Assembly: GCA_964408275.1 (NCBI GenBank)
Contig: CAYOYX010000006.1
Span: 7,307 to 71,306, forward strand
Direction: 5' to 3'
DNA length: 64,000 nt
From: an uncultured Terracidiphilus sp.
GTDB taxonomy: Bacteria > Acidobacteriota > Terriglobia > Terriglobales > Acidobacteriaceae
The first letter of the stretch is position 1. The number at the start of each line of letters is the position of its first letter. Shown here one piece after another: positions 34,144-57,614 of the stretch. The position numbers were made by a program, and so were the translations under genes. The notes under the pieces are model-generated. The model was not told where the DNA came from. It saw only the letters and a program-made list of their open reading frames with translations, and searched no databases.

Positions 34144-34399
34144 GGAATTCCAGTGTAAATGGAGAGGCAGGGACCAGGGACTAGGGGCTGGGGAATAGTT
34201 GTTCGTTGCTGGATTGAGAGCCATTTTTTCGTTAGCACTGGACTTGCCTTGCCCCTAATGCATTAGAGTTATCTGGATAGAATTCAGCGCGGTTTTGATA
34301 TTGCCTGCGTGCCGGTCGAGGGCTTAATGCTTCGGCTGATTCCAGCAGGCGATTGGCGCGCGTAGCAGAGACGGATTGATGAGAGCGGAGAAAATATTC

Positions 34400-35650
34400 A
34401 TGGCAAAGCAAAACCCAGCACCGGCGGCCACAGGCGCGCCCAACTATCTTGTGCCGTTCATCATTGTTACGGCACTGTTCGGCATCTTCGGATTCCTCAC
34501 CAGTCTCAACAACCAATTGGTAGGCAAGCTGAAAGAGATCTTCGATCTACCCTACGGGCCGTCGATGCTGGCGACATCGGCCTGGTTCTTTGCTTACCTG
34601 ATCTTTTCGGTTCCCAGCGGCAAGCTGATCGAGAAGGTGGGCTATAAGTACACGATGGTGATCTCACTGTTCATCATGGTGGCGGGCGCGCTGTTGTTTG
34701 TTCCGGCAGCGAATCTGGTGAGCTTTCCTCTGACGCTGACAGCGATTTTCGTTTTGGCCACAGGCGTCTGCGCTTTGCAGACCTCGGCCAACCCTTATGT
34801 TGCGATTCTTGGTCCCGAGCATAGCGCATCGGCGCGGCTGAACCTGGCGCAGGCCTTTAACTCAGGTGCTTCAGCCGCCGCTGGATGGTTTGCCGCCCGC
34901 TTCATTCTGGCCGATACCAGCAAAATCTCCGATGCCGTCGGCGAAGCGCATATGCTTGAGATGCCATACGTCTATATCGCAGCCGGGTTGCTTGTACTAG
35001 GCATTACGGTGAGGTTCCTGCATCTGCCGGCGATTGCCTCCTCACGGCCAGCCGATGACTCGCCGCTGCCGGGTCGCAGCATTTGGAGTTTTCCGCACAC
35101 GGTACTTGGCATGGTTGGAATTTTCTTCTATGTGGGCGTAGAAATCGCCTTGGCCGCAATCGCCATTCAGTACTTCAAGCAGCAAGGCATCAGCAACCTG
35201 CAAACAGCCGGAATCCTGGTTACGGCCTATTACCTGTTCATCATGGCGGGACGCTTCCTGGGCAGCTTCCTGATGAAGTGGATCAAAGCGGAAAAGATGC
35301 TGGTATTCCTGGGCATTCTGGGCGTTGCATTGATGCTGATCTCGATGTTCACTACGGGTCAAGTCGCCATCTGGAGCCTGGTGCTCTGCGGACTGGCCAA
35401 CTCCATTATGTATCCGACCATCTTCGCTCTGGGCATCGCCGAACTGGGACCGATGACCAGCAAGGGATCGGGTGTCATTACGATTGGCAATGTGGGCGGA
35501 GCAGTGATTCCGCCGCTGATGGGCTTTTTAGCTGACAAGATCGGAATTCAGTATGCGTTTATTCTGCCGATCATCTGCTACATCTACGTGGCCTACTACG
35601 GCCTGTCGGGCTACAAGCCCACGCGGGCTGTCGCCGCTCTAGCAAAATAA
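34400..35650 (+). CDS. sugar MFS transporter (FucP/GluP-like)
   Basis: 12-TM profile. FucP/GluP-like N-terminus (FGIFGFLTSLNNQLV.KLKEIF). The start is set at ATG 34400. Confidence 0.85.
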   Translation: MAKQNPAPAATGAPNYLVPFIIVTALFGIFGFLTSLNNQLVGKLKEIFDLPYGPSMLATSAWFFAYLIFSVPSGKLIEKVGYKYTMVISLFIMVAGALLFVPAANLVSFPLTLTAIFVLATGVCALQTSANPYVAILGPEHSASARLNLAQAFNSGASAAAGWFAARFILADTSKISDAVGEAHMLEMPYVYIAAGLLVLGITVRFLHLPAIASSRPADDSPLPGRSIWSFPHTVLGMVGIFFYVGVEIALAAIAIQYFKQQGISNLQTAGILVTAYYLFIMAGRFLGSFLMKWIKAEKMLVFLGILGVALMLISMFTTGQVAIWSLVLCGLANSIMYPTIFALGIAELGPMTSKGSGVITIGNVGGAVIPPLMGFLADKIGIQYAFILPIICYIYVAYYGLSGYKPTRAVAALAK

Positions 35651-35725: not shown

Positions 35726-37033
35726 TTATGCGCTCTCTTCAAGCGGCGGGGCGAAGCGCGCGCCCGCGCGGAGGATGATGCAGGAGACGACCATCATGAC
35801 GAGCGTGGCTCCGAGGCCGATGCGCAGGCTGCGAGTGCGGTCGGAGAGATAGCCGATGATCTGCGGCGAGAAGGTGTCTCCGAAGCAGTGAATGCAGAAG
35901 AGATTGACGGAGACGGCGGTGGCGCGAATCGGGCCGGAGACCGAGTTGACGATGGCGGTGTTGAGCGGGCCGGTGTTGAGGAAGAGGAAGAACTCGGCGG
36001 CGAAGAGTGATGGAACAGCCCACGACGCGGGGCCGAAGAAGAGCAGCAGGCCGCAGGGCAGAGTGAGCGCGACGCTCCAGAAAGAGAGCAGATAAAGCGC
36101 GCGGTGATTGGTGCGCAGCCAGCGCTGGGCAATCCAGCCACCGATGAGGGTTCCGGCGATGCCGTCGATAACCGTGGCTGCGCCGACCACCAAACTGGAG
36201 TTGGCGATGGTGAGTCCGGCATTGCGATGAAGGAATTCCGGCACCCAGTTGGAGATGCCGCCCATCGCAAAGGTGAGCGTAGCGAGGCCGAAGGTCGCGG
36301 TGAGGAACGCGGGGTTGCGGAAGAGGCCGAGGACGGTGTCGCGACTGGCGGTGGGGCGGATATGGTCGCAGGAGCCGCGCTCCGGTTCCCTGCCCCACAG
36401 ACCATAGAGCGCCGCGATGATAAAGCCGGGGACAGCGCAGACAAAGAAGGGCGCGCGCCAGCCCCAAATGGAACCGATTTGTCCTCCAGCCATGTAGCCG
36501 AGCGCCGCGCCGACGGGAATGGCCACGTAAAAGATGGAGAGGATGCGATTGCGCTCGCGCTCGGGATAGAAGTCGGCGAGCACGGCAGGCGCGAAGATGC
36601 CGAAGGTGGCCTCGCCGATGCCGACAAAGGCTTGGCGGATGTAGAAGGTCCAGTAGCCGTGAACCCAGACGGTGGCGAGCGTGGCGAGACTCCACAGAAC
36701 CGCGCCGGCAATGATGAGCGGCTTGCGCGGATAGCGGTCGCCGAGCCAGCCGGTCAGAGGCGCGGCGAACATATAGAAGATGAACAGCGCCGTGGTCAGG
36801 GCGCCCATCTGCTGATCTGTCGAGTGGAATTCGCGCTGAATCAGCGATAGCTCGCCGGGAAGAATATAACGGTCAATATAGTTGAGCAGGTTGAGGCCAA
36901 TCAGCAACACGAACGTCCCCAGAGCGGGGCTTATGCGAGGGCGCGCGGAGTGGGTGGCAGTCGGCACGTGGGATCTGATCAGGCAGAGATTGCCGGACTC
37001 CAAAGGAATATCACAACCGGCGGAGAGATGCAT
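35726..37033 (-). CDS. MFS transporter (Spinster-like subfamily)
   Basis: 12-TM profile. LNLLNYIDRYIL and GWLGDRYPRK (MFS motif A-like). Confidence 0.8.
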   Translation of the reverse strand: MHLSAGCDIPLESGNLCLIRSHVPTATHSARPRISPALGTFVLLIGLNLLNYIDRYILPGELSLIQREFHSTDQQMGALTTALFIFYMFAAPLTGWLGDRYPRKPLIIAGAVLWSLATLATVWVHGYWTFYIRQAFVGIGEATFGIFAPAVLADFYPERERNRILSIFYVAIPVGAALGYMAGGQIGSIWGWRAPFFVCAVPGFIIAALYGLWGREPERGSCDHIRPTASRDTVLGLFRNPAFLTATFGLATLTFAMGGISNWVPEFLHRNAGLTIANSSLVVGAATVIDGIAGTLIGGWIAQRWLRTNHRALYLLSFWSVALTLPCGLLLFFGPASWAVPSLFAAEFFLFLNTGPLNTAIVNSVSGPIRATAVSVNLFCIHCFGDTFSPQIIGYLSDRTRSLRIGLGATLVMMVVSCIILRAGARFAPPLEESA

Positions 37034-37171: not shown

Positions 37172-38563
37172 ATGCCTATCCACGAAGACCGTCTGTTTCC
37201 CTCCGAGCCAGGCACACGAAAGATAGCCAAAGCGCTCTATGCCAGCATCAAAGACCTGCCGATCATCAGCCCCCACGGACACACGCAGGCGGCGTGGTTT
37301 GCCAAGAACGAACCCTTCCCCAATCCGGCAAAGCTGCTGATCCAGCCTGATCACTACGTCTACCGGATGCTCTACAGCCAGGGAATCTCGATGGAGGAGC
37401 TGGAGATCGGCGTGGCGGAGATGAAGAACCCGCGCAAGGTCTGGAGCATCTTCGCCAGCCATTATTATTTGTTTCGCGGAACACCGTCGCGAATGTGGAT
37501 GGATTACGTCTTCCAGAATCTCTTCGGGCTAAAGCAGCGTTTTTCAGCGGAGACGGCCGACCTTTTCTTTGACACGATTGCGGAGAAGCTGAAGTCGCCG
37601 GAGTTTTTGCCGCGCGCGCTTTTTGAGCGCTTCAACATCGAAGTGCTCTCGACAACCGATTCGCCGCTGGACTCGCTGGAAGACGTACAGGCAATTCGCG
37701 CCTCTGGCTGGAAGGGACGGATTCTGCCCGCCTTCCGGCCCGATCCGGTCGTCGATCCGGAGTTTGCAGGGTTTTCACAGTCGATTCTCAAGCTGGGCGA
37801 ACAGACCGGCGAAGACACCGCAACATGGTCCGGCTATCTGAAGGCTCTGCGCAAGGCACGGCTGCGCTTCAAGGCGCTGGGCTGCACCTCGACCGATCAC
37901 GGCCATCTGACTGCGGAGACCGCCGACCTGCCGTTGGCCGAAGCCGAGGCGCTCTTCAACAAAGTCTTCAGCGGCAAGGCCGAGAAGCGCGAGATGGTTC
38001 TCTTCCAGGCGCAGATGCTCACCGAGATGGCCGCGATGAGCCTGGAAGACGGCCTGACGATGCAGATTCATCCAGGAAGCGTGCGCAACCACAATCGCCT
38101 ACTGTATGAAAAATATGGCCGCGATGTGGGCGCCGATATTCCGCAGCCGACCAACTATGTGAATGCGCTGCGCCCACTGCTCAACCGCTTCGGCAATGAA
38201 AGCAAGCTGACGATCATTCTGTTTACGCTCGATGAATCCACTTATAGCCGCGAGCTGGCGCCGCTGGCCGGCCACTACCCCTGCCTGCGCCTCGGACCCT
38301 CGTGGTGGTTCCATGACAGCCCAGAAGGCATGATGCGCTTCCGCGAACAGGCTACCGAGACGGCGGGGTTCTATAATACGGTAGGCTTCAACGACGACAC
38401 CCGGGCTTTCCTATCCATTCCGGCGCGTCACGACGTGGCTCGCCGCGTGGACAGCTCCTTCCTGGCCAGACTCGTCACCGAGCACCGGCTGGACGAGGAC
38501 GAAGCCTTTGAAGTTGCGCGCGAGCTGACTTATGGGCTGGTCAAGAAGGCATACCGACTTTGA
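37172..38563 (+). CDS. uxaC: glucuronate isomerase
   Basis: UxaC-like throughout (LPIISPHGH, FRGTPS..W, HPGSVRNHN). 463 aa. Confidence 0.92.
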   Translation: MPIHEDRLFPSEPGTRKIAKALYASIKDLPIISPHGHTQAAWFAKNEPFPNPAKLLIQPDHYVYRMLYSQGISMEELEIGVAEMKNPRKVWSIFASHYYLFRGTPSRMWMDYVFQNLFGLKQRFSAETADLFFDTIAEKLKSPEFLPRALFERFNIEVLSTTDSPLDSLEDVQAIRASGWKGRILPAFRPDPVVDPEFAGFSQSILKLGEQTGEDTATWSGYLKALRKARLRFKALGCTSTDHGHLTAETADLPLAEAEALFNKVFSGKAEKREMVLFQAQMLTEMAAMSLEDGLTMQIHPGSVRNHNRLLYEKYGRDVGADIPQPTNYVNALRPLLNRFGNESKLTIILFTLDESTYSRELAPLAGHYPCLRLGPSWWFHDSPEGMMRFREQATETAGFYNTVGFNDDTRAFLSIPARHDVARRVDSSFLARLVTEHRLDEDEAFEVARELTYGLVKKAYRL

Positions 38564-38575: not shown

Positions 38576-39886
38576 ATGAGTGTTGATCTCTCGCAGGACG
38601 TCCAGGCCGAGAATATCTCTTCGCCAAAGGAACGAATCGGCCGTGTGCGCTGGACTATCTGCGCCATGCTCTTCGCTGCCTTCACCATCAACTATATGGA
38701 TCGCTCGATTCTCTCGCTCCTCAAACCCACCCTTGCGCAATCCATCGGCCTGACCGAGGTGGGCTACAGCTATGTGGTGGATGCGTTCTTTGTCGCCTAC
38801 ACGATCGGCCTGCTGTTCTCCGGGCGGATTATTGACAAGGTAGGCACACGAGTCGGTTTCCTGGGGATGATGGGCTTCCGCACCGTGGCGGTGCTGGGCC
38901 ATTGTCTGGTTAATACCGTCATGCAGTTCGGCGTCGCGCGCTTCGCTCTGGGCTTGGGCGAATCGGGCAGCTTTCCCGCGGCCATCAAAGCCGTCGCGGA
39001 GTGGTTCCCGCAGAAAGAACGCGCGCTGGCCACCGGCATCTTCAACGCCGGAACCAATGTCGGCGCAGTCTTAGCTGCGCTGACCGTGCCCTGGGTGGTC
39101 ATCCACTTTGGATGGCACGCTACCTTTCTACTCACGGGCGCCCTCAGCTCTACATGGATATTGATGTGGTACATCTTGTACCGAAAGCCCAGTGAATATC
39201 CCTCGCTCACCGCCAAGGAACTGCGTTACATCAGCGATGGAATGGCGGCAACCACGACGGAGCCATCCCTCCCCTGGATCAAATTGCTCGGCTATCGTCA
39301 GACCTGGGCGTATACGGTCGGCAAGTCCCTCACCGATCCGGTCTGGTGGTTCTTGCTCTTCTATATACCGTCTTTCTTTAGCGATAAATTCCATCTGAAC
39401 ATTTTTCATCTTGGACTTCCGATGATTGTCTGCTATAGCGCCTCGGCCGTCGGCAGCGTCTTCGGCGGCTGGTTGTCCGAGCCATTTCTAAGCATGGGCA
39501 TGAAGCCCAGCAACGCGCGCCTTGCGGCCATGCTTGTCTGCGCTATTCTCGTGCTTCCCATTTGCACCGTGGCCTTTGTCAACTCGGAGTGGGTGGCCAT
39601 TGGGATCTTCAGCCTGGTGACAGCGGCGCACCAGGGGTGGTCGGCTAATCTCTTCACCACCACCTCGGATATGTTTCCAAAAAGTCATGTGGGGTCTGTC
39701 ACTAGTATCGGCAGCATGGCCGGTTCAGCTCTCGGCGTCTCGCTGATCACCTTTGCGGGCTACCGCCTGGGACATTCGCACAGCTATGTGCAGCTCTTTT
39801 TCATTTGCGGCAGCGTCTATCTTCTGGCCCTGCTCATCATGGTCCTGCTTGCTCCGGGGCTGAAGAAAGTTGAGTTCGCCGCATGA
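38576..39886 (+). CDS. MFS hexuronate transporter (ExuT-like)
   Basis: ACS-family MFS features (INYMDRSILS, GR.IDK.G). Lies 12 nt after uxaC. Confidence 0.8.
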   Translation: MSVDLSQDVQAENISSPKERIGRVRWTICAMLFAAFTINYMDRSILSLLKPTLAQSIGLTEVGYSYVVDAFFVAYTIGLLFSGRIIDKVGTRVGFLGMMGFRTVAVLGHCLVNTVMQFGVARFALGLGESGSFPAAIKAVAEWFPQKERALATGIFNAGTNVGAVLAALTVPWVVIHFGWHATFLLTGALSSTWILMWYILYRKPSEYPSLTAKELRYISDGMAATTTEPSLPWIKLLGYRQTWAYTVGKSLTDPVWWFLLFYIPSFFSDKFHLNIFHLGLPMIVCYSASAVGSVFGGWLSEPFLSMGMKPSNARLAAMLVCAILVLPICTVAFVNSEWVAIGIFSLVTAAHQGWSANLFTTTSDMFPKSHVGSVTSIGSMAGSALGVSLITFAGYRLGHSHSYVQLFFICGSVYLLALLIMVLLAPGLKKVEFAA

Positions 39887-41151
39887 GTCTTTACTGCGCA
39901 GTAGGAAATCCCGATACCGATCTGACGCCTCAGCAGTTGAACGATCTGCTGGTGGAGGGTTTGGCCAAGCTCGGCCCGCGCAAGAACGTGCTGGCTGTGC
40001 CGCCTGATCAGACTCGTGCTCACTCGCGTGCCGGCGAACTGACGCGCTACGCGTGGAAGCACTATGGCGACCGGCTCAAAGCGGTTCTGCCCGCGCTGGG
40101 AACCCATGTGGCGATGAATCCAGAGCGGGTCGCCGCCATGTTCGGCGAGATGCCCTTCGATCTCTTCAAGGTGCATAACTGGCGCACCGACATCGAGACA
40201 ATGGGCGAGGTTCCCGCCGAGTTCATTCGCGAGCAATCGGAAGGCAAGCTGGATTATGCATATCCGGCGCAGGTCAACAAGCTGGTCTCGCGCGGCGGCT
40301 TCGATCTGATTCTCTCCATCGGCCAGGTCGTGCCTCATGAAGTGATCGGCATGGCCAACTACAACAAGAACATTCTGGTCGGCACCGGAGGCCGCGACGG
40401 CATCAATCGCAGCCATTATCTCGGCGCTGTCTACGGAATGGAGCGCATTCTTGGTCGCGCCGTTAATCCTGTGCGCAACGTACTGAACTACGCCGCCGAT
40501 CACTTCCTCAAGCATCTGCCCATCGTCTATGTACAGACGGTGGTGAGCCGCAGAGCCGACGGCACTCTGGCCGTGCGCGGACTTTTTATCGGCGATGATA
40601 TGGAGTGCTTCACCAAGGCCGCCGAACTCAGCCTCAAGGTCAACTTCGAGATTGTCGCCAATCCGATCAAGAAGGCTGTCGTCTATCTCGATCCCGAAGA
40701 GTTTCACTCCACTTGGCTGGGCAACAAAGCCGTCTATCGCACCCGCATGGCTCTGGCCGACAATGCGGAGCTGATCGTGCTGGCTCCGGCGGTAAAGGAA
40801 TTCGGTGAAGACAAAACCATCGACACGCTGATTCGTAAGTATGGCTATCGCGGCACCCCGGCAACGCTCAAGGCTGTCGCGGAAAATCCCGAGTTGGCCA
40901 ACGATCTGAGCGCCGCCGCGCACCTGATTCACGGCTCATCGGAAGGGCGCTTCAAGATTACCTGGTGCCCCGGCCACCTGACGAAAGAAGAGGTCGAGGG
41001 CGTCGGCTTCGGCTTCGGCGATTTGACCGCGATGCAGAAGCGCTACGATCCCGCGAAGCTTTCGCTGGGCATTAACAAGGTTAATGGCGAAGAGATCTTC
41101 TTCATCTCCAATCCCGGATTAGGGCTGTGGGCGCATCGCAGCCGGCTCTAG
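39883..41151 (+). CDS. LarA (nickel-pincer lactate racemase) superfamily 2-hydroxyacid racemase/epimerase-like protein
   Basis: 422 aa. Motifs PDQTR, LGTH, PHEVIGMANYNK, NRSH match, in order and spacing, my recollection of LarA SDHTR, TGFH, SHFFAGFSGGRK, MANH (His-10-Lys-16-His). ATGA overlap with the exuT-like gene. Confidence 0.7.
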   Translation: MSLYCAVGNPDTDLTPQQLNDLLVEGLAKLGPRKNVLAVPPDQTRAHSRAGELTRYAWKHYGDRLKAVLPALGTHVAMNPERVAAMFGEMPFDLFKVHNWRTDIETMGEVPAEFIREQSEGKLDYAYPAQVNKLVSRGGFDLILSIGQVVPHEVIGMANYNKNILVGTGGRDGINRSHYLGAVYGMERILGRAVNPVRNVLNYAADHFLKHLPIVYVQTVVSRRADGTLAVRGLFIGDDMECFTKAAELSLKVNFEIVANPIKKAVVYLDPEEFHSTWLGNKAVYRTRMALADNAELIVLAPAVKEFGEDKTIDTLIRKYGYRGTPATLKAVAENPELANDLSAAAHLIHGSSEGRFKITWCPGHLTKEEVEGVGFGFGDLTAMQKRYDPAKLSLGINKVNGEEIFFISNPGLGLWAHRSRL

Positions 41152-41176: not shown

Positions 41177-42433
41177 TTGAAACTTCCCAAGTATTCCGTA
41201 GGAACCGGCGACCGCTTCGCGCATCAGGCCAAGGCACAGTTGCAGGCCTGCATCCAGGCTCTCGCGAGCGGCGTTGAAGTGATTCCCGTGTGGAACAAAT
41301 CGAACCGCGAACATACCATCATCGGCTCCGAGCCGGCCACAACGCGCGCCGCCGCCGATGCCGCCGTCAAGGCGCTCAACTGGAAGCTGCCCTACTATTG
41401 CGACGCCGACCACATCACATTGCAGACGCTGAACCGCTTCCTCGGCGCCTGCGATTTTTACACGCACGATGTGGCCGACTTTATCGGCCAGCCGGCGCCC
41501 GCCGCCGAGATCGATCACTTTGTCGGCAAGCACAAGGAACTGATCGGGCGCATCCAGCTTGAAGGCGTCAGCGACAGCTTCGAGATTACGCCGGAGATTC
41601 TGCGCCAGACCGCGCAGAAGTATCTCACCGCCGTGAAGAAGGCCGGCGAAATTTACCGCGCCATCGTCGCCGTCAAAGGCGCAGGCAACTTCATTCCTGA
41701 AGTTTCGATGGACGAGACCGACAGCGCGCAATCGCCCGTCGAGCTGCTCATCATTCTCGCCGCTATTGCCGATGAAGGCATTCCCGTGCAGACGATTGCG
41801 CCCAAATTCAGCGGCCGCTTCAACAAGGGCGTGGACTATGTGGGCGACTTGGCGCAGTTCGAGCGCGAGTTCGTTCTTGACGTTGCGGCGATTGCTTATG
41901 CGGTCAATCACTTTGGCCTGCCGGAAAATCTCAAGCTGAGCGTACACTCAGGCTCGGACAAATTCTCCATCTATCCTGTGATTCACTCGACGATCAAGCG
42001 CTTCAACGCAGGCTTGCATCTGAAGACCGCTGGAACCACGTGGCTGGAGGAACTGATCGGATTGGCCGAGGCCGGCGGAGATGCGCTCGCGCTGGCTCAG
42101 GAGATTTATGCCGAGGCCTTTGCGCACAGCGAAGAATTATGCGCGCCCTACGCCACGGTCATTGACATCGACCGCAGCAAGCTGCCCTCGCCCGCCGAAG
42201 TGAAAACATGGAATTCAGCGCAGTTTACCTCCGCGCTGCGCCATGTGCGTGGAGCCGCTGCATACAACAGCAGCCTGCGCCAGTTGCTGCACGTCGGCTT
42301 CAAGGTTGCTGCCAAGATGGGCGACCGCTATCTCGGCCTGCTCGAAGCCAATGAAGCTGTGATTGCGAAAAATGTGACGGAGAATCTCTATAACCGGCAC
42401 ATCGCGCCCGTCTTTCTGGGACGCAATGCCTGA
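41177..42433 (+). CDS. uxaE: tagaturonate/fructuronate epimerase
   Basis: KGVDYVGDLAQFEREF, SVHSGSDKFSIYP and HLKTAGTTWLEE closely match remembered Thermotoga UxaE blocks. TTG start with an AGGAGAG RBS. Confidence 0.8.
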   Translation: MKLPKYSVGTGDRFAHQAKAQLQACIQALASGVEVIPVWNKSNREHTIIGSEPATTRAAADAAVKALNWKLPYYCDADHITLQTLNRFLGACDFYTHDVADFIGQPAPAAEIDHFVGKHKELIGRIQLEGVSDSFEITPEILRQTAQKYLTAVKKAGEIYRAIVAVKGAGNFIPEVSMDETDSAQSPVELLIILAAIADEGIPVQTIAPKFSGRFNKGVDYVGDLAQFEREFVLDVAAIAYAVNHFGLPENLKLSVHSGSDKFSIYPVIHSTIKRFNAGLHLKTAGTTWLEELIGLAEAGGDALALAQEIYAEAFAHSEELCAPYATVIDIDRSKLPSPAEVKTWNSAQFTSALRHVRGAAAYNSSLRQLLHVGFKVAAKMGDRYLGLLEANEAVIAKNVTENLYNRHIAPVFLGRNA

Positions 42434-42480: not shown

Positions 42481-43563
42481 ATGAGTCATGGATTGAATAT
42501 CCGCAAAGATGCGGAACTGGATTTTCTGTCGCTGGGAGCGTTGGTGCATCGGCTTGATCCGGGAATTATTCCCTTCCGCAAAGCGACCGAGTGCAAGATT
42601 CACGTCAGCGGCGGCGAGTTCAATGTGGCCGCCAACCTGTCCGATTGCTTTGGCATGAAGACGGCAATCGCCAGCGCGATGTCGGAGTATCCCATTGGCG
42701 ATCTGATCGCCGAGCGCGTACGCGCGATGGGCGTGAAGCCTTACTACAAGCGCTTCAAGCACAACGGCGTGAACGGCCCCAACATGGCCACCGTCTACAG
42801 CGATCAGGGCCACGGTGTGCGCCCGCCGGTGGTTTTTTATAACCGCAGCAACGAAGCTGCCGCTCAACTGAAACCCGGCGACTTCGATTGGAAGGCGATC
42901 TTCTCGGGTGGCGTGAAGTGGGTTCATTCCGGCGGAATCTTCGCGGCGCTCTCGCCGACGACCGCTCCACTGGCTGCAGAGATGATGAAGGAAGCCAAGG
43001 CCGCGGGCGCAGTCACTTCCTTCGATCTGAACTTCCGCGAGAAGCTGTGGAATATCCACGGCGGCGCGGAGAAGGCCGTCGAAACCATCAGCAAGATCGT
43101 CGAGAATGTGGACGTGCTGGTCGGCAACGAAGAGGATTTGCAAAAGGGTCTCGGCATTCCTGGGCCGGAGGTTGCGGCTAAATCGAAGCTCGATCCCAGC
43201 GTCTTTTTTGGCATGATCGATCAAGTGATCAAGAAGCACCCCAAGGTGAAGGTGGTAGCCACTACGCTGCGCGAGGTGCATTCGACCAATCACCATAGCT
43301 GGAGCGCTGTTGCGTGGGTGGACGGCAAAACGCACACTGCGCCGACGGCCGAGCTCGATGTGATCGATCGCGTGGGCGGCGGCGACGGCTTTGCGGCTGG
43401 CTTCATCTATGGCCTGCTGAACGGCGAATCGCCCGAGGAAGCGATCAAGCTGGGATGGGCGCACGGCGCGCTGCTGACCACCTTCCCCGGCGACACCACG
43501 ATGGCGACCGTCGATCAGGTACGCGCATTCGCCAAGGGCGGATCGGCTCGCATTCAGCGCTAA
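42481..43563 (+). CDS. kdgK: PfkB-family sugar kinase, 2-dehydro-3-deoxygluconokinase-like
   Basis: PfkB motifs (GGEFNVAANL, DRVGGGDGFAAG). Hexuronate operon context. Confidence 0.8.
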   Translation: MSHGLNIRKDAELDFLSLGALVHRLDPGIIPFRKATECKIHVSGGEFNVAANLSDCFGMKTAIASAMSEYPIGDLIAERVRAMGVKPYYKRFKHNGVNGPNMATVYSDQGHGVRPPVVFYNRSNEAAAQLKPGDFDWKAIFSGGVKWVHSGGIFAALSPTTAPLAAEMMKEAKAAGAVTSFDLNFREKLWNIHGGAEKAVETISKIVENVDVLVGNEEDLQKGLGIPGPEVAAKSKLDPSVFFGMIDQVIKKHPKVKVVATTLREVHSTNHHSWSAVAWVDGKTHTAPTAELDVIDRVGGGDGFAAGFIYGLLNGESPEEAIKLGWAHGALLTTFPGDTTMATVDQVRAFAKGGSARIQR

Positions 43564-43604: not shown

Positions 43605-44453
43605 ATGAGCAGTGAGTCATTCGATCTTGCGGAACTAACGACAATGTACAACTTCAAGGGGAAGACGGTGGCCATCACCGGCGGCGCGGGCGTGTTGGGC
43701 GGCGATATGGCTGTCGCGCTGGCCGGTTGCGGCGCGCAGGTTGCCATCCTCGACATGAACGAAGATGCGGGCAAGGCGCTGATCGAGCGCATGGGAGTGC
43801 TTGGCAAGCAGGTCTCCTTCTTCAAGTTCAACGCGCTTGATCGCGAGAGCGTTGCGCAGGTATCGCAGGAGTTGATCAAGAGCCTGGGCAAGCTCGATTG
43901 CCTGATCAACGCCGCTGGCGGCAACAAGCCGCAGGCCACGACCAGCGCGGAGTTGAAGTTCTTCGATCTGCCCACCGATGCCTTGCGCTGGGTCTTCGAC
44001 CTGAATGTTCTGGGCACGATTCTGCCCTGTCAGGCCTTTGGAAAAGTGATGGCGGAGCAGGGGTACGGCACGATTCTGAATATCTCTTCGATGAATGCAT
44101 TTCGTCCGCTGACCCGCATTCCCGCTTATTCGGCGGCGAAGGCGGCGGTGAGCAACTTCACGCAGTGGCTGGCCGTGCACATGGCGCAGGAGTACTCGCC
44201 GAAGATTCGCGTGAATGCGATTGCGCCGGGATTTTTCCTTACCAATCAAAACCGCTTTTTGTTGACCGACAAAGATACAGGCGAATGGACCGCGCGCGGC
44301 AAGACAATCGTCGGTCACACGCCGATGGGACGCCTGGGAGAATCCAAAGATCTCTTTGGATGTGTATTGTGGCTGCTCTCTCCGGCTTCGGAGTTTGTTA
44401 CCGGCGTGGTAATTCCTGTCGATGGCGGATTCTCCGCCTTCAGCGGCGTGTAG
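43605..44453 (+). CDS. SDR-family oxidoreductase, D-mannonate oxidoreductase (fructuronate reductase)-like
   Basis: TGGAGVLGG cofactor motif and YSAAK catalytic motif. GGAGA RBS before ATG 43605. Last gene of the operon. Confidence 0.75.
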   Translation: MSSESFDLAELTTMYNFKGKTVAITGGAGVLGGDMAVALAGCGAQVAILDMNEDAGKALIERMGVLGKQVSFFKFNALDRESVAQVSQELIKSLGKLDCLINAAGGNKPQATTSAELKFFDLPTDALRWVFDLNVLGTILPCQAFGKVMAEQGYGTILNISSMNAFRPLTRIPAYSAAKAAVSNFTQWLAVHMAQEYSPKIRVNAIAPGFFLTNQNRFLLTDKDTGEWTARGKTIVGHTPMGRLGESKDLFGCVLWLLSPASEFVTGVVIPVDGGFSAFSGV

Positions 44454-44478: not shown

Positions 44479-44508
44479 AGGCTGCGTCGAAAGGCGCAGC
44501 CTTTTTTA
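44479..44508 (+). terminator. intrinsic terminator after the hexuronate operon
   Basis: Perfect 8-bp stem aggctgcg / cgcagcct with an 8-nt loop, followed by tttttt. Confidence 0.8.
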
Positions 44509-44524: not shown

Positions 44525-45799
44525 TCAGCGCAAGGAAACCTTCGCGCCCGCCTGCTTCATAATCGCTTCGCCGCTCTCAGCCTGTACGGTCACGTTCTCC
44601 CCGCTCACTTCGGCATAAGCAATCGTCATTCCAGTTTTGGCGCCGATCTTCACATTGCGCAGCGCGACGCCGATGATTGGAGCCTCCGGCAATCCCACAA
44701 TCGCTCCCGCGGAATCGCTTCCCTCCGCCGTAACATTCTCCAGCACAATATCGTGAAAGCGCGGAGTGAGGCGCGTAATCGGTTGCGCGGTTTCTGTTGC
44801 AGGCGGAAGAACCTTGGGATAGTATTCGCTGATAATCAGCGCGTTCTTCACGCCTTTCATTGAAATATCACGAAAGATAAGATGGCTGACATCGTTGCCG
44901 CGATCGCGATTGGCTTTTACGCGAATGCCGTTGTCGGTTCCTTCGAAGTGAATGCGCTCGGCGCGGATATTCCGCGCTCCGCCTGCAATCTCGCTGCCGA
45001 TGGAAAGGCCATGCCCATGCAGAAAAATGCAATCGGTGATGGTGATCTCTTGGCTGGGCGCATCCGGCCCCGGCGAGTTGATTGCCCCCGACTTGATCGC
45101 GACATTATCATCGCCCACGTCCGCAAAAACATGATCGATAATCACGTGCGACGACGAGAAGGGATCGATGGCATCAGTGTTCGGTGAATGCGGTGGCGCA
45201 AGGATCCTGACATTGCGAATCACCACGTCGTCCGAGTAATAAGGAACCAGTTGCCACATCGGCGAATTCTGGATAGTCACTCCCTCAATGCGAATGTGTT
45301 TGCAGTGGTCGAAGACAATCAGCTTGGGCCGCGGATGTTCGGAGCCGAGAATCCCGGAGTTCTTGAAGCTGCGCGCCATCTCCCACCAGCTCTCGCCGTT
45401 GCCGTCGATTACGCCTTCGCCGGTAATGGAGATATTCATCGCGTTGGTTGCGCTCACTAGCGATTGCAATCCCGGCAGACGAAACTCCGTCCACGCTGGG
45501 TAATCCGCGTGATCGGGAGAACCGAGCAGCGTCGCGCCTTTGTCGATTTGCAGCGTGATGTTGCTCTTCAACACGATCGGCGCGCTGAGATACGTTCCCG
45601 CCGTAAGACGAACCGTGCCGCCAACATTTGCGCAACTATCGATGGCTTTCTGAATCGCCGCAGTATCTTTAGTTACGCCGTCTCCCTTGGCGCCGAAGGT
45701 GCGTGGATTACAAATGGCGGGAGTTGCAAAGGCGCTGGCCGAAGCGGCAACAACGACAGACAAACAGAGAAGTTTTACGAACAAACAGCTCTTTCGCAT
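44525..45799 (-). CDS. glycoside hydrolase family 28 (polygalacturonase), secreted
   Basis: GH28 signature blocks NTDAIDP, GDDNVAIKSG, HGHGLSIGSE, GIRVKA. Signal peptide from ATG 45799. Confidence 0.9.
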   Translation of the reverse strand: MRKSCLFVKLLCLSVVVAASASAFATPAICNPRTFGAKGDGVTKDTAAIQKAIDSCANVGGTVRLTAGTYLSAPIVLKSNITLQIDKGATLLGSPDHADYPAWTEFRLPGLQSLVSATNAMNISITGEGVIDGNGESWWEMARSFKNSGILGSEHPRPKLIVFDHCKHIRIEGVTIQNSPMWQLVPYYSDDVVIRNVRILAPPHSPNTDAIDPFSSSHVIIDHVFADVGDDNVAIKSGAINSPGPDAPSQEITITDCIFLHGHGLSIGSEIAGGARNIRAERIHFEGTDNGIRVKANRDRGNDVSHLIFRDISMKGVKNALIISEYYPKVLPPATETAQPITRLTPRFHDIVLENVTAEGSDSAGAIVGLPEAPIIGVALRNVKIGAKTGMTIAYAEVSGENVTVQAESGEAIMKQAGAKVSLR

Positions 45800-45854
45800 T
45801 CCGATATTATTGCACTGCGCCGCCTGCGCTGGCCGAAGCGCGGGCGGAAGTTCT

Positions 45855-46535
45855 CTACCCACGCACGGATACACCGGAGAAGGATAGCACCGCTAATCCG
45901 GGGATGGGCTGGCCGAAGCGGCGGGCCGGCTCAAAGCGGCTCCACAGCAGCAGGTTCTCCACCTGCGCCCGTGTGGCGTCGTCGGTGGGACCGGAGACGA
46001 TGCGATAGTCGTAGACCTGGCCCGCGCCGTTCACGTAGGCCTCGATCACCACCGAGCCGGAGATAGCGTTGATCGGGTCGGCGCCCGCGACGCTGGAGAG
46101 ATAGAGGAAGCGCGGAGCGGTGACCATTCCCAGCGGCTCATCAGCCGTAGCCTGCACCTTCTCCGGTTGAGCAAACATTCCTACCATTACAGCGACCGAG
46201 CCCATTAGCAGCACTGCGGAGACAAAGCCGCCCGCCGCCTGCAACAGGAATGGTCCAACCGTATTTTTCCAGGCCAGATTCCAGGCATGGAAGGGACTCT
46301 GACGGCGCGCCCGCTCATGGCTGATGGCCACGCGAATCCGCAATTGCAGGTCCGCAGGCGCAGGCGCCGGACCCAACGCGGCCAGCGAAGACTGCGCCAG
46401 CTTGAGAGAGTTCCACTCCACAGCGCACTCTTTGCAACCCTCCAGATGGGCGGCGATCTCCTGCATCTCGCGTCCGCTCAGACGGCCATCCAGGTACTCG
46501 GTAAATCTAGTCCGCATTGCATTACAGCCGTTCAT
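45855..46535 (-). CDS. anti-sigma factor (zf-HC2) with single TM and TonB-C-like C-terminal domain
   Basis: N-terminal H..C..C zinc motif (AAHLEGCKECAVEW). Central TM. C-terminus resembles a TonB C-terminal fold. 4-nt overlap with the sigma gene. Confidence 0.7.
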   Translation of the reverse strand: MNGCNAMRTRFTEYLDGRLSGREMQEIAAHLEGCKECAVEWNSLKLAQSSLAALGPAPAPADLQLRIRVAISHERARRQSPFHAWNLAWKNTVGPFLLQAAGGFVSAVLLMGSVAVMVGMFAQPEKVQATADEPLGMVTAPRFLYLSSVAGADPINAISGSVVIEAYVNGAGQVYDYRIVSGPTDDATRAQVENLLLWSRFEPARRFGQPIPGLAVLSFSGVSVRG

Positions 46536-49129: not shown

Positions 49130-50365
49130 ATGATAGAAGAAAGAAACCAATTGAACCGGCGCTGGCTTTGGCTGGGCGCACTCCTGCTGATCATTGCCGT
49201 TTTTATCCTGGTGCGTTCGCTGACGAAGGATCGCGTTCAGGTTCATGCTGCGACTGCCGCACGTGTGCCGCTGATCAACGAAGTCAGCACCAATGGCCGC
49301 GTTGAGCCGGAAGAGAATTATGCAATTTACAGCCCGATTTCGACCACGGTCAAGGCGGTATACATACAGCCCGGAGACGTGGTGGCAGCAGGCAAGCTGC
49401 TGATGGTGTTGGATGATGTGCAAGCGCGCGCCCATCTGGCAACGGCAGAGAGCGGCGTGAAGGCCGCGCAGGCCGCGTTGGAGGCCGCGACCCACAACGG
49501 AAGCCAACTGGAGCATGATACGGCTGTGGCCGACGAGACGCGCGCGCGGCTGGATCGCGACGAGGCGCGCAGGGATATGGTTGCGCTGACTAAGCTGAAC
49601 GCCGCCGGAGCAGCCTCTTCCAGCGAAGTGACAGCGGCGCGGCAGCGGATGGAAGCGGCCGATGTTACTCTTCGCGCAATGGAGCAAAGTACAACCAGCC
49701 GCTATTCGCCGGCAGAGGTGGAGCGGGCGCGGGCGGCGCTGACCGACGCGGAGGCCGGGCTGACGGCAGCGCGCGAAGTAATGGCTCAAACGGTGTTGCG
49801 CGCTCCTGTGGCGGGAACAGTCTATGACGTTGAGGTCGGACGCACCGAATATGTGGAAGAGGGCAAACTCCTGATCCAGGTGGCTGACCTGCACCATGAG
49901 CGGATACGCGCCTACTTTGACGAGCCGGAGATCGGAAGCCTGCAAGTTGGACAAAAGATTCAGATCAAGTGGGACGCCAAACAGGGACGCGTCTGGAACG
50001 GGCATATCGAGCGGACACCTGTGACGGTGATCAACCGGGGCACGCGCAGTGTGGGCGAGGTGCTGGTGAAGATTGACGACTCTGACAGCGGCCTGCTTCC
50101 GGAGACGAATGTGAACGTGACGGTAACCATTTCAAGCGAGCCGAACGCGTTGAGCATTCCGCGCGATGCGTTGCATGATGAGAATGGCAAGACCTTCGTT
50201 TATAAGGTTGAGAATAACAGGCTACAGCGAACTCCGGTGACGATTGGGAGCATTAATCTGACCCAGGTAGCAATTCTCTCTGGAATAGGGGAGGGGGATT
50301 TGGTGGCGACCAGATCGATCAACGGAGATTCGTTGCGCGATGGCGTAGCGGTGGTTGTGCGGTGA
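49130..50365 (+). CDS. efflux periplasmic adaptor (HlyD/MFP family)
   Basis: N-terminal TM anchor, long coiled-coil (AQAALEAA...RAALTDAEAGL), beta-barrel C-terminus. Confidence 0.85.
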   Translation: MIEERNQLNRRWLWLGALLLIIAVFILVRSLTKDRVQVHAATAARVPLINEVSTNGRVEPEENYAIYSPISTTVKAVYIQPGDVVAAGKLLMVLDDVQARAHLATAESGVKAAQAALEAATHNGSQLEHDTAVADETRARLDRDEARRDMVALTKLNAAGAASSSEVTAARQRMEAADVTLRAMEQSTTSRYSPAEVERARAALTDAEAGLTAAREVMAQTVLRAPVAGTVYDVEVGRTEYVEEGKLLIQVADLHHERIRAYFDEPEIGSLQVGQKIQIKWDAKQGRVWNGHIERTPVTVINRGTRSVGEVLVKIDDSDSGLLPETNVNVTVTISSEPNALSIPRDALHDENGKTFVYKVENNRLQRTPVTIGSINLTQVAILSGIGEGDLVATRSINGDSLRDGVAVVVR

Positions 50366-51354
50366 AAAAGCAGGTGTTGCTGGGTTTTGCAGGGTTGGGG
50401 ATGGTGCTGGGCATGGCGTCAGCCGTGGCCGCTTTTGCCTCTGCGCCGGGCGGAGTGAGTACGCAGCTTGCCTTGGCTAAAACGGCGCTGGAAGCCGGAG
50501 AGGCGGATAAAGCGATTGCCTTGCTGAATCCGCTGGCGCAGCGAGGCAATGCTGAGGCTTATAACCTGAGATGCCGCGTAGAGTATGCGCTGGAGCAGTG
50601 GGATCAGGCCGCGAACGATTGCGAGCAGGCAGTCAAGCTGGACGGACACAACTCCGACGATCATATGTGGTTGGCCCGAGCGCTGGGAGAGAAGGCGCGC
50701 AGGGCATCGTTTCTGAGTGCATACAGGCTGGCCAAGCGGGTAAAGGCCGAGTTTGAAGAGGCAGTCCGGCTGAATCCCGGCAATGGCGAGGCGCTCACCG
50801 ACCTGGCGAATTATTACTACTCGGCGCCGGGGGTGGTGGGCGGCGGAATCGACAAGGCTGAGCGCGTAGCCGAGCAACTGGACAAGATTGACGCGGCGCG
50901 CGCCCACGAACTCCGCTGCCATCTTGACGAGCAGCGCAAGGATTACGGCACGGCGGAGCGTGAGTACAAGCAGATGATCGGGTGGTCGGCGCATCCTGCC
51001 TTTCCCTGGATAGCGCTGGCGCGCTTCTATCGCGGGCGCGAGCGCTGGGCGGAGATGGAGTCGGCGGTGCGCAGCGGACAAAGCGCAGCGGAGAGGGATA
51101 AGCACGCGGGCGTGGCGTTCTATTCCGGCGCATCCATTTTGCTCGCAACCAGCCGCGACCCGGCGCGTGCCGCAAAGATGTTGGAAGAATATCTCGCCGG
51201 CAACTCGAAGAGCGAGGATGCGCCGGCGTTTGTGGCGCACACTTGGCTGGCCGAACTGAAGCTGAAGTTAGGCGACAAAGCGGGAGCAAGCCAGGAACGC
51301 GCGGCGGCTCTGGCCCTGGCGCATGATTACAAGCCTGCTCTGGATTTGAAGTGA
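50362..51354 (+). CDS. TPR-repeat protein with signal peptide
   Basis: GTGA overlap with the adaptor gene. Repeated A..Y..A...G TPR-like helices. Confidence 0.7.
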   Translation: MKKQVLLGFAGLGMVLGMASAVAAFASAPGGVSTQLALAKTALEAGEADKAIALLNPLAQRGNAEAYNLRCRVEYALEQWDQAANDCEQAVKLDGHNSDDHMWLARALGEKARRASFLSAYRLAKRVKAEFEEAVRLNPGNGEALTDLANYYYSAPGVVGGGIDKAERVAEQLDKIDAARAHELRCHLDEQRKDYGTAEREYKQMIGWSAHPAFPWIALARFYRGRERWAEMESAVRSGQSAAERDKHAGVAFYSGASILLATSRDPARAAKMLEEYLAGNSKSEDAPAFVAHTWLAELKLKLGDKAGASQERAAALALAHDYKPALDLK

Positions 51355-51370
51355 TGAAGGGATCGACTTC

Positions 51371-52711
51371 GTGAAGAACGGACAGAATCCGTTGAAGGGC
51401 TGGGCATTCCTGATTGCTGCGGCGCTGACTGTGGCTCCGTTGCCGCTCTCGGCGCAGAACTCGCTGACGACGGTCGTGGAACTTGCCGAGCGCAATTCCA
51501 GCGCCGTCAAGCTGGCCGAGGCGGATCTGCGCAAGGCGCAAGCCGTGCACTCCGAGACCAAGGATGTTTTTGTACCAAGCCTGATGCTCGGTTCGGGGCT
51601 TCCCGCAGTGCCAACTGTCGGCTTTACCGGAGGCGTGCCCTCGATCCTGAACGGCACCGCGCAGTCGATGGTCTTCAGCCTTCCGCAGATGCTCTACATC
51701 AAAGCGGCGCGCGCCGCGGTTGAAGCCGCCAATCTCAATCTGAAGAGCGCCCGCGAGCAGGTTGCGCTGGAAGCCTCCACGGAATACATCGAACTCGATA
51801 CCGTCGAACGCGAGTTGGAGGCCGCGCATCAGCAGGAGGAATTCGCGGAGCGGCTGGTGACCATCGAGCAGGAACGCGCTGAAGCTGGCGTGGACCCGCT
51901 GAGCGATCTGCTCCAGGCGCGGCTGACGGCAGCGCAGTTGAAGCTCAAGCGGCTGCATCTGGAAACCCGCGCCGCAACCCTTTCAAAAGAGCTTGCTACG
52001 CTCACAGGTTTGCAGGCCGGTTCAATTACAACGGATCACGACAGCATCCCGGAAATTCCCCAGGTGAAGGCGAGCGATGGGAAAGACTCTATTGCCGGAG
52101 TGGATTCAGCGCAAATGAATGCGCTCGCAAAACAACGGCAGGCAAAGGGAGACAGCAGATATACGTTAATCCCGCAGATAAGCTTCGCCGCGGAGTACCT
52201 GCGTAGCACCGGAATACTGAACGATGCCGCCCACTACTATTTAGATCACGGCGCCCTCCCAACCAACAACTTCACTTCAGGATTTCAGATTCAGGTGCCG
52301 CTGTTTGACTGGGGCCATCGCGCCAAGGTGCGGGAGTCGGCGGCTGACGCGCTCCGAGCCACGGTCGAGGCCGAGCAAGCCCAGCGGCAAAATGAACTTC
52401 AAATAGCGGAGTTGACGGGAAGCCTGCTGGAGTTGGATACTTTGGCTGAGATTGCGAGTCTAAAGCAACAGATCGCCAATGAGCAGCTCCAGGCCGTGCT
52501 GTCTCAACTGGAGTTGGGCAATGGCGCCGCTGCCGCTCCGGGCGCTCCGCCGCAGCTTTCCCCGAAGGCGGAGCAGTTGGCCCGCATCGATGAGCGCCAG
52601 AAGTATCAGGATGCGCTGGATACGGAGTTCGATCTCAGCAAGGCGCGGCTGGGTCTGTTGCGCGCCCTCGGCCACATGGAAGACTGGCTGCACGAACTGA
52701 ACGCAAAGTAA
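51371..52711 (+). CDS. TolC-family outer membrane efflux protein
   Basis: Signal peptide. Two OEP-like repeats with long coiled segments. 446 aa. Confidence 0.85.
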   Translation: MKNGQNPLKGWAFLIAAALTVAPLPLSAQNSLTTVVELAERNSSAVKLAEADLRKAQAVHSETKDVFVPSLMLGSGLPAVPTVGFTGGVPSILNGTAQSMVFSLPQMLYIKAARAAVEAANLNLKSAREQVALEASTEYIELDTVERELEAAHQQEEFAERLVTIEQERAEAGVDPLSDLLQARLTAAQLKLKRLHLETRAATLSKELATLTGLQAGSITTDHDSIPEIPQVKASDGKDSIAGVDSAQMNALAKQRQAKGDSRYTLIPQISFAAEYLRSTGILNDAAHYYLDHGALPTNNFTSGFQIQVPLFDWGHRAKVRESAADALRATVEAEQAQRQNELQIAELTGSLLELDTLAEIASLKQQIANEQLQAVLSQLELGNGAAAAPGAPPQLSPKAEQLARIDERQKYQDALDTEFDLSKARLGLLRALGHMEDWLHELNAK

Positions 52712-52773: not shown

Positions 52774-54258
52774 ATGAAGGGGATGACTATGCCTTTGAAG
52801 ACGCTGTTGCTGAATCCGCCCTCGTTCGAGAAATTTGACGGAGGCGCGAGTTCGCGCTGGCCGGCCACGCGCGAGATCGAATCCTACTGGTTCCCCGTCT
52901 GGCTCACCTATCCCGCCGGATTGCTCGAGGGTTCGCGGCTGCTCGACGCGCCGCCGCACCACATCTCCGCCGACGAAACCATCAAGATTTGCAAAGACTA
53001 CGAGTTCCTGGTGCTCTTCACTTCAACCATCGGCTGGGCGAGCGATCAGAAGCTGGCCGAGGCCATCAAGGCTGCGAATCCCTCCATGCGCATTGCCTTC
53101 GTCGGGCCGCCGGTGACCACCGATTCAGACAAGGCGCTGAACGAGTGCGCCGCTGTGGACTTCATCTGCCGTCGCGAGTTCGATTATTCCGTCGTCGAGT
53201 TCGCGCAGGGCAAGCCGCTCAATGAGATTCTCGGCATCAGCTACAAAAAGGATGGTAAGATCGTCCACAACCCTGACCGCCCGCAGGTCGAAGACCTGGA
53301 CGCAATGCCCTGGGCGACGAAGATTTACAAGCGCGATCTGGATGTCGCGCGCTACAACGTGCCCTTCCTGCTGCATCCGCACATCGCGCTCTACACCACG
53401 CGCGGCTGCCCGGCGCAGTGCACCTTCTGCCTGTGGCCGCAGACACTGAGCGGACACGCATGGCGCAAGCGCTCCACCGATGATGTGGCCGCCGAGCTGG
53501 CCTGGGCCAAAGAGAATTACCCCGATGTGAAGGAGTACTTCTTCGACGACGACACCTTCAACATCCAGAAGCCGCGCACCATCGAGCTATGCGAAAAGAT
53601 CAAGCCGCTCGGTCTCACCTGGAGTTGCACCTCGCGCGTAACCACCGACCGCGAAACGCTGAAAGCGATGAAAGACTCCGGCTGCCGCCTGCTCATCGTC
53701 GGCTTTGAATCCGGCGATCCGCAGATTCTCAAGAACGTCAAGAAGGGCGCAACCGTCGAGCGCGCCCGCGCCTTCGCCAAAGATTGCCATGACCTCGGCC
53801 TGACGATTCACGCTGATTTTATCCTCGGCCTTCCCGGCGAAACCAAGGCGTCGATTCGCAACACCATCAACTTCGCCAAGTCACTGGACTGCGAAACTAT
53901 TCAAGTCAGCATCGCCCACGCCTTCCCCGGAACGGAGTTCTACGATTACGCCAAAGACAACGGCTTCATCGTGAACGCGCAGTCGATGAGCGACGAAGGC
54001 GGCCATCAGATGGCGCACATCGAATATCCTGGCCTGCCTACCGACTACGTGCTGGAGATGGTGCACCGCTTCTACGACGAGTACTACTTCCGGCCCAAGG
54101 CAGCCTTCCGCGTCATCTGGAAGGCGATCGTCAACCGCGACGTGCCCCGGCTTTATACCGAGGCCAAGGCATTCCTCAAGCTGCGCTCACAGCGCAACAA
54201 GATGGTGAAGGCCGCGCGCAGCAAATCCGTCGAGCCGGCCGCGGTTGTAAGCGCCTGA
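52774..54258 (+). CDS. hpnJ: hopanoid biosynthesis-associated B12-binding radical SAM protein HpnJ
   Basis: LLNPPSFEKFDGGASSRW N-terminus typical of HpnJ. Radical SAM CPAQCTFC. The start may be ATG 52789. Confidence 0.85.
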   Translation: MKGMTMPLKTLLLNPPSFEKFDGGASSRWPATREIESYWFPVWLTYPAGLLEGSRLLDAPPHHISADETIKICKDYEFLVLFTSTIGWASDQKLAEAIKAANPSMRIAFVGPPVTTDSDKALNECAAVDFICRREFDYSVVEFAQGKPLNEILGISYKKDGKIVHNPDRPQVEDLDAMPWATKIYKRDLDVARYNVPFLLHPHIALYTTRGCPAQCTFCLWPQTLSGHAWRKRSTDDVAAELAWAKENYPDVKEYFFDDDTFNIQKPRTIELCEKIKPLGLTWSCTSRVTTDRETLKAMKDSGCRLLIVGFESGDPQILKNVKKGATVERARAFAKDCHDLGLTIHADFILGLPGETKASIRNTINFAKSLDCETIQVSIAHAFPGTEFYDYAKDNGFIVNAQSMSDEGGHQMAHIEYPGLPTDYVLEMVHRFYDEYYFRPKAAFRVIWKAIVNRDVPRLYTEAKAFLKLRSQRNKMVKAARSKSVEPAAVVSA

Positions 54259-54380
54259 CACTGGCCGGGTATCTGAACTTTGTATCCCATCGCTTATGAA
54301 TTCCTTGTGGATAGGATGGGATACTAGGGTTAGTGTTTCCCTATGGGATGCTAGAGAGTGTTTCAAAAAACAGCTTTGTG

Positions 54381-55620: not shown

Positions 55621-55626
55621 TGTTAA

Positions 55627-57597: not shown

Positions 57598-57614
57598 TCC
57601 TCAAAACATATTTC

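Follow-up and report, generated by a model that had tools for sequence, protein, structure and literature searches.

The 64-kb stretch of DNA analysed here, taken from a contig of an uncultured Terracidiphilus sp. and called the window below, carries at positions 39883-41151 of its forward strand a gene named larAH18 after LarA homolog group 18, whose product is a predicted hexonate 2-epimerase dependent on the nickel-pincer nucleotide (NPN). To judge from its sequence and genomic context, this protein is probably a group-18 hexonate epimerase of the LarA superfamily (PF09861, COG3875), which would most likely convert D-mannonate into D-gluconate and thereby feed hexuronates into 6-phosphogluconate. 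The evidence lies in its family membership, the conservation of its residues, the structure of its operon and the genes associated with it across genomes, all of which were observed directly. An earlier note, made from the letters of this DNA alone, had already described a LarA-superfamily enzyme of 422 amino acids at this place and had proposed that it epimerises C6 aldonates at C2, possibly within the mannonate/gluconate pair; both proposals find support in the profile searches, the alignments and the comparative context reported here.

Membership of the epimerase in LarA homolog group 18

The open reading frame (ORF) starts with ATG and encodes 422 amino acids, and this start codon is right, the N-terminus reading MSLYCAVG compared to MSLYCAIG in ACP_2683, a group-18 protein from Acidobacterium capsulatum. 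The protein matches the NCBIfam equivalog NF052594 ('NPN_18_hexonate, nickel-dependent putative hexonate epimerase') with 641.3 bits (E 5e-193) over profile positions 3-410 of 411, the curated cut-off being 500 bits. In a control scan, the same profile gave 622 bits for ACP_2683, 543 bits for Terro_4320 and 481 bits for a truncated diatom member, whereas GntE2, GntE1 and LarA reached 194, 160 and 26 bits, respectively, so that NF052594 separates group 18 from these three proteins. The Pfam domain Lar_N (PF09861), which the earlier note had proposed as a check, passes weakly, with 29.3 bits over residues 33-180 for a gathering score of 23.3. Besides, the best match in the PDB is 4NAR, the apoprotein of GntE2 from Thermotoga maritima, retrieved both with the single sequence (E 3e-29) and with a group-18 profile (E 3e-51), the latter also matching 2YJG, a lactate racemase apoprotein, with an E of 4.5e-6.

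In terms of identity, the window epimerase is 78% identical to ACP_2683 and 71% to Acid345_4308, compared to 27-28% for GntE1 and GntE2 and 20% for LarA. At 27-28% identity, it falls outside the GntE clades LarAH19 and LarAH20; its sequence places it in their sister group 18, and it would therein 'work like' a GntE without being a member of either clade. Soil and peat metagenomes and metagenome-assembled genomes (MAGs) of Terracidiphilus are the sources of the public homologs with 85-92% identity, some of which already bear the NCBI name 'D-mannonate epimerase'. An AlphaFold2 model built on an alignment of 19 such close homologs was too poor (mean predicted local distance difference test, pLDDT, 46.8; predicted template modelling score, pTM, 0.42) and was used neither for interpretation nor for a fold search.

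The catalytic and cofactor-binding residues were followed through two alignments. The first, made with MAFFT, held the window protein, LarA from Lactiplantibacillus plantarum, GntE1, GntE2 and two group-18 proteins (dataset of PMC7583248). In this alignment, D42, R45, H75, H152, K162, H178 and K282 of the window protein stand in invariant columns with D72, R75, H108, H174, K184, H200 and K298 of LarA, and the H-x9-K and K-x15-H spacings are those of LarA. The earlier note had equated PDQTR, LGTH, His-x9-Lys and NRSH, with its His 16 residues after the Lys, with LarA motifs, and had set a real alignment beforehand as the test of this idea; residues and spacing hold once LarA, GntE1 and GntE2 are aligned. 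In the second alignment, of 13 group-18 proteins from 7 phyla, the same seven residues are invariant, and so are the pocket signature residues E153, V154, W278, N281, H347 and H350. The group-18 signature over 20 LarA reference positions (D R H H E V K H V W L N K S A A L I H S) is exact in the window epimerase, and PPDQTR, LGTH, PHEVIGMANYNK, NRSH, NPV, STWLGNK and LSAAAHLIHGSS are the same as in ACP_2683, whose signature is listed in the Dataset of PMC7583248. Compared to groups 19 and 20, the group-18 pocket has L/N instead of T/A or T/G on helix 11, and S-A-A-L-I-H-S on helix 14. Taken together, the agreement of motifs and spacing in a real alignment and the matches to NF052594, Lar_N and 4NAR bring the family assignment far beyond chance, which makes larAH18 a genuine and well-conserved representative of LarAH group 18, the group corresponding to NF052594.

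By homology, NPN would be bound via Lys162, with His178 completing the coordination of nickel, and His75 and His152 would form an acid/base pair, alternately deprotonating and reprotonating the C2 hydroxyl of the substrate. The C2 hydride would be parked on the pyridinium C4, and C2 of the 2-hydroxy acid would be inverted by proton-coupled hydride transfer, as described for LarA (PMC11770544, PMC7583248). Both the loading of the cofactor and this mechanism are thus suggested for the window epimerase by the conservation of the residues involved.

The hexuronate operon and related neighbourhoods

The epimerase gene is the third of six co-directional and tightly spaced genes on the forward strand. 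The operon opens with uxaC (37172-38563), coding for a glucuronate/galacturonate isomerase (Pfam UxaC 254 bits; NF002794 568 bits, cut-off 387), followed by a major facilitator superfamily (MFS) transporter gene of the D-galactonate/hexuronate, ExuT-like type (38576-39886; MFS_1 177 bits; best NCBIfam subfamily TIGR00893, below its cut-off). The stop codon of the latter overlaps the start of larAH18 by 4 nt (gcATGAgt), an overlap also present in the relative L001. The ATGA coupling to the transporter and the position ahead of uxaE, both read by the earlier note, are thus in the sequence: uxaE, coding for a tagaturonate/fructuronate 3-epimerase, lies at 41177-42433 (Pfam UxaE 163 bits) with a TTG start 8 bases after an AGGAGA Shine-Dalgarno sequence. 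The fifth gene (42481-43563) encodes a PfkB-family sugar-acid kinase (PfkB 77.6 bits) resembling KdgK, the 2-keto-3-deoxygluconate (KDG) kinase; it matches 2AFB, the KDG kinase of T. maritima, with an E of 5e-45, and among the NCBIfam models it is closest to the kinase half of a fusion of 2-keto-3-deoxy-6-phosphogluconate (KDPG) aldolase and kinase (249 bits, below cut-off). The last gene (43605-44453) encodes a fructuronate reductase or D-mannonate oxidoreductase of the short-chain dehydrogenase/reductase (SDR) type, a UxuB analogue (NF006132 354 bits, cut-off 281), and starts with an ATG after AGGAGA. With uxaC, the MFS gene, uxaE and the SDR gene together, hexuronate uptake and conversion to D-mannonate are predicted to be encoded by the operon.

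A GC-rich hairpin with T-runs on both strands, recognised through a terminator consensus match only, lies at 44479-44505 between uxuB and a convergent gene, and is likely a bidirectional terminator closing the operon. The convergent gene, on the reverse strand (44525-45874), codes for a polygalacturonase of glycoside hydrolase family 28 (GH28; Glyco_hydro_28 170 bits; PglA-type polygalacturonase 229 bits, below cut-off), which may supply galacturonate from pectin. None of uxuA, uxaA/B, eda, edd, gntK, gnd, larB, larC and larE came up when the ORFs of 150 residues or more in the whole window were scanned.

Related loci number at least 591, one genome per species being scanned, and the best 80 were used for comparison. 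They come mostly from Acidobacteriaceae, then from Bacteroidales, Planctomycetota, Ignavibacteria and Spirochaetota, and their neighbourhoods, of up to 10 kb on each side, were searched by tblastn with the window proteins, E. coli reference enzymes and the Gnd of a relative. An SDR gene was found in 50 of the 80 loci, uxaC in 43, uxaE in 33 and an MFS gene in 29; less frequent were gnd, coding for 6-phosphogluconate dehydrogenase (6PGD; 17 loci), the KdgK-like pfkB (14), GH28 (10) and gntK (5), and rare were eda (2), kduI (2) and uxuA (1). Across phyla, gnd (788 bits on its equivalog) often stands immediately downstream of larAH18, while the gluconokinases of related loci are of the GntK/IdnK type (156-162 bits, cut-off 114). 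In the closest relative, whose epimerase is 88% identical (L001/L003), the order is pfkB-gnd-uxaC-MFS-larAH18-uxaE-SDR, 6PGD being thus included. In two other loci (L041 and L042), it is uxaC-larAH18-uxaE-pfkB-gntK-SDR, and pfkB and gntK, standing together, therefore have separate functions there. Probing the 80 neighbourhoods with E. coli Edd revealed no dehydratase of the IlvD/Edd type. The neighbours listed for group 18 in Table S1 of PMC7583248 are SDR (36%), 6PGD (32%) and ribokinase-family kinase (16%), along with MFS and UxaC; the window has the SDR, PfkB, MFS and UxaC of this typical neighbourhood, and lacks 6PGD. These associations, of uxaC, uxaE and SDR on the one hand and of gnd and gntK on the other hand, are as expected if the product of the epimerase is gluconate bound for 6-phosphogluconate.

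Clustering of the ORFs of the 80 loci revealed, beyond the genes named above and unrelated housekeeping genes, only one recurrent family, a GntR/FadR-type regulator, which lies divergently upstream of uxaC in 15 loci (e.g. L018:6198-6953, reverse strand). The window lacks it; there, the place upstream of uxaC is taken by a divergent MFS transporter gene (35726-37033, reverse strand), adjoined by a FucP/GluP-type permease gene (34376-35650, forward strand). The SDR slot is filled by two types of protein. The NF006132 'D-mannonate oxidoreductase' type occurs in the window, in L003 and L004 and in loci from outside the Acidobacteria (49-83% identity), and a KduD-like SDR, only 35-40% identical, occurs in most Acidobacteriaceae loci (L005-L036; e.g. 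L008:12739-13482), which looks like a non-orthologous replacement. As for the kinase, the operon position of the KdgK-like pfkB varies between close relatives, and the PfkB of the window is 81% identical to those of two Ignavibacteria loci (L075:8910-9968 and L082:2727-3806), where the epimerases are only 62-64% identical; this pattern suggests a lateral transfer of the KdgK-like gene between phyla.

The same neighbourhoods bear on the cofactor. The earlier note had deduced that the enzyme depends on LarB, LarC and LarE; no gene for NPN biosynthesis lies in the window to confirm this directly, and the support is indirect, from other genomes. Motif scans followed by NCBIfam scans detected a complete larE-larC-larB cluster, convergent to the larAH18 operon and less than 10 kb away from it, in 4 of the 80 loci, namely three MAGs from Acidobacteriaceae (L041, L045 and L059) and one from Spirochaetota (L050). 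In L041, the cluster (15750-19366, reverse strand) comprises larB (291 bits), larC with both domains and larE (304 bits); the others lie at about 15100-18260 in L045, at about 19700-21266 in L059 and at 15509-18400 in L050. The lar genes of L045 are split over frames, LarB being recovered by tblastn in three pieces and LarC and LarE in two each, which probably reflects frameshifts of a long-read assembly rather than real pseudogenes. A search with the LarB of L041 returned proteins at least 80% identical throughout its best 120 matches, and all the NCBI-named ones were from Edaphobacter. An association of group 18 with lar genes is not listed by Desguin 2020 (PMC7583248). The presence of larE-larC-larB beside orthologous operons thus indirectly supports the NPN dependence of the group-18 family in Acidobacteriaceae.

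The fate of mannonate and the competing explanations

In the proposed route, UxaC would isomerise galacturonate or glucuronate, UxaE would convert tagaturonate into fructuronate, and the SDR-type UxuB would reduce fructuronate to mannonate, which the larAH18 epimerase would then turn into D-gluconate. After phosphorylation, the latter would enter the pentose-phosphate or Entner-Doudoroff pathways as 6-phosphogluconate, the kinase and the dehydrogenase of these last steps presumably being encoded outside the window. We infer the substrate of the epimerase from the company that its gene keeps.

Several points weigh against this route. No assay of any bacterial group-18 enzyme was found in the literature, and the Km for free mannonate in the family is high (9-120 mM; PMC7583248, PMC11770544), so that another compound, or a phosphorylated one, could be the native substrate. 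The one group-18-type enzyme that seems to have been assayed, the Phytophthora LarAH15 discussed below, is linked to group 18 through the translation of 8 residues of a primer. Gluconokinase, gnd, edd, eda and larB/C/E are among the genes that the scan of the 64 kb did not find. Finally, the operon has a KdgK-like kinase, which belongs to the UxuA/KDG branch and not to the gluconate branch, and which argues that KDG is still made somewhere. The UxuA step, called missing in the earlier note, is absent as far as the window and 79 of the 80 neighbourhoods are concerned, and for those stretches only. A self-contained operon, in which PfkB itself would act as gluconate or mannonate kinase, was considered and rejected as the principal explanation, the best matches of this protein being KDG kinases; its co-occurrence with a separate gntK (L041, L042) and with eda (L071, L075) also disfavours such a role.

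The most serious rival, though an unlikely one, is that mannonate is first phosphorylated by PfkB or by a GntK-type kinase, the epimerase then converting 6-phosphomannonate into 6-phosphogluconate. Valk et al. 2020 (PMC6978723) described this sequence of reactions in extracts of Lactobacillus suebicus, which displayed mannonate kinase activity as well as 6-phosphomannonate 2-epimerase activity without free mannonate epimerase activity; the epimerase gene was not assigned in that work, and a GntE homolog was abundant in cells grown on galacturonate. The high Km of the assayed GntEs for free mannonate would fit as well, and so would the 6PGD gene found directly after larAH18 in many loci, often with an adjacent sugar-acid kinase gene. 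However, GntE1, GntE2 and the Phytophthora LarAH15 are active on free mannonate, with a kcat of 59-197 per s, the second kinase of the operon, where present, is a gluconokinase of the GntK/IdnK type, and PfkB is KdgK-like; no report in the literature was found of 6-phosphomannonate being tried on any LarAH. Rather improbable, too, is a replacement of UxuA, as in the route around UxuA suggested by the earlier note: gluconate made from mannonate would be turned into KDG by a gluconate dehydratase whose gene lies elsewhere, KDG then being the substrate of the operon's KdgK and no mannonate dehydratase being needed for pectin catabolism. The scarcity of uxuA and the KdgK-like kinase in 14 neighbourhoods, with eda in 2, speak for it, but the Edd probe revealed no dehydratase of the appropriate type, the gnd and gntK associations point to 6-phosphogluconate, and KDG can be obtained via the KduI/KduD route too. 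Moreover, uxuA may simply lie elsewhere in the genome, as it does in T. maritima.

That mannonate would be a side substrate, the native one being another uronate-derived 2-hydroxy acid (L-gulonate/L-idonate, D-altronate/D-allonate or an aldarate), has little to recommend it. Desguin 2020 (PMC7583248) kept the name 'putative hexonate epimerase' for group 18 and doubted mannonate as native substrate of group 19, and several signature positions of the group-18 pocket are unlike those of groups 19 and 20. Nevertheless, the operon, with uxaC, uxaE and the NF006132-type oxidoreductase, would make mannonate, the conserved downstream partner is 6PGD, and no conserved gene for metabolising another epimer pair was found nearby. 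Finally, the failure to find larB/C/E in the 64-kb window could be taken as the sign of a relic, inactive or without cofactor, in a genome devoid of NPN biosynthesis. This is hardly credible in view of catalytic and NPN-binding residues that are invariant across phyla, of an identity of 85-92% to many relatives, of an operon position and a translational coupling that are kept, and of the larBCE genes adjoining the orthologous operon in other Acidobacteriaceae. The conversion of free mannonate into gluconate thus stays the preferred explanation.

If this annotation is right, common soil Acidobacteria would route uronic acids derived from pectin to 6-phosphogluconate via a nickel-pincer enzyme, and part of the turnover of plant polymers in acidic soils would hinge on nickel supply and on the LarB/C/E pathway. 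A bolder and doubtful version is that, in this lineage, the nickel-pincer epimerase is the sole way out of mannonate in a genome devoid of UxuA, possibly with 6-phosphomannonate as the true substrate. The use of pectin, galacturonate and glucuronate for growth would then be strictly dependent on nickel and on LarB/C/E, and, were 6-phosphomannonate the substrate, the gene for the 6-phosphomannonate 2-epimerase of the redox-neutral galacturonate pathway would be identified. The route would be redox-neutral in that the NAD(P)H spent at fructuronate reductase is regained at 6PGD (PMC6978723), which is of interest for the engineering of galacturonate fermentation.

The rest of the window and the comparison with known systems

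Beyond the operon and GH28, the window holds further genes. A zf-HC2 anti-sigma-factor-like gene (45855-46535, reverse strand) directly follows GH28, and a set of HlyD, TPR and outer-membrane efflux (OEP) genes occupies 49130-52711 on the forward strand; for neither is a link to the operon obvious. Further on, a cluster of hopanoid/squalene type (52774-62609) includes genes for a B12-binding radical-SAM protein (52774-54258) and, on the reverse strand, for an amine-oxidase-family protein (55627-57051), two members of the squalene/phytoene-synthase family (57615-59554), two Zn-dependent dehydrogenases (59551-61912) and a PNP_UDP_1 phosphorylase-family protein (61887-62609).

The concept of a mannonate/gluconate epimerase in hexuronate catabolism is not new. 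A role as mannonate/gluconate 2-epimerase was put forward for TM0442 (GntE) by Rodionova et al. 2012, as cited in PMC6978723 and PMC7583248; their proposal connected the uxaE route with gluconokinase and 6PGD, and mentioned homologs in Acidobacterium and Terriglobus. Desguin 2020 (PMC7583248) then reported an NPN-dependent epimerisation of D-mannonate to D-gluconate in vitro by groups 19 and 20, in keeping with the statement of the earlier note that a gluconate 2-epimerase is known in the LarA family, and predicted group 18 to be a hexonate epimerase. Nothing was found in the literature under 'LarAH18', nor was any later paper on bacterial group-18 enzymes. A eukaryotic one has very probably been assayed: 'LarAH15' of Phytophthora nicotianae was described as a narrow-spectrum GntE with a Km of 9.4 mM and a kcat of 111 per s (JBC 2024, PMC11770544), and translation of its forward cloning primer gives MATLLFAE, in agreement with MTLLFAEG of PITG_09435, the P. 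infestans ortholog, which is listed in group 18. Compared by this N-terminus only, it is probably of the group-18 type like the window protein, from which it differs in being eukaryotic and without operon context.

Among the enzymes of established activity, GntE2 of T. maritima (LarAH20, TM0442, 4NAR) shares with the window protein the fold family, the catalytic and NPN residues, the E-V/S loop that follows the second His and, on helix 11, the Trp, and it likewise sits in a hexuronate cluster containing uxaE; its mannonate/gluconate activity is proven. It differs by its 28% identity, its 194 bits on NF052594, its separate clade and its pocket residues on helices 11 and 14, and the Thermotoga cluster, unlike the window, has its own FGGY gluconokinase. 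GntE1 of Corynebacterium glutamicum (LarAH19), an NPN-dependent mannonate/gluconate epimerase in vitro, has a uronate-linked context as in the window, but is 27% identical; in view of its Km of 120 mM, the authors questioned whether mannonate is its native substrate (PMC7583248), and in group 19 larB/E/C are often neighbours. With LarA of L. plantarum (5HUQ), the founder of the superfamily, the window protein has in common the catalytic dyad, the tethering Lys, the Ni-binding His and their spacing, whereas the identity is 20% and, in place of the hydrophobic F-F/W lactate pocket of LarA, the window protein has E-V together with small or polar residues that suit a polyol chain. From the group-18 proteins themselves, ACP_2683 and Acid345_4308 of Ca. 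Koribacter, the window protein shows no material difference, the signature, the length and the types of neighbours being the same. It is therefore an ordinary ortholog of a curated and previously predicted family, and the window offers one more well-preserved example of it, in a compact six-gene operon suited to cloning.

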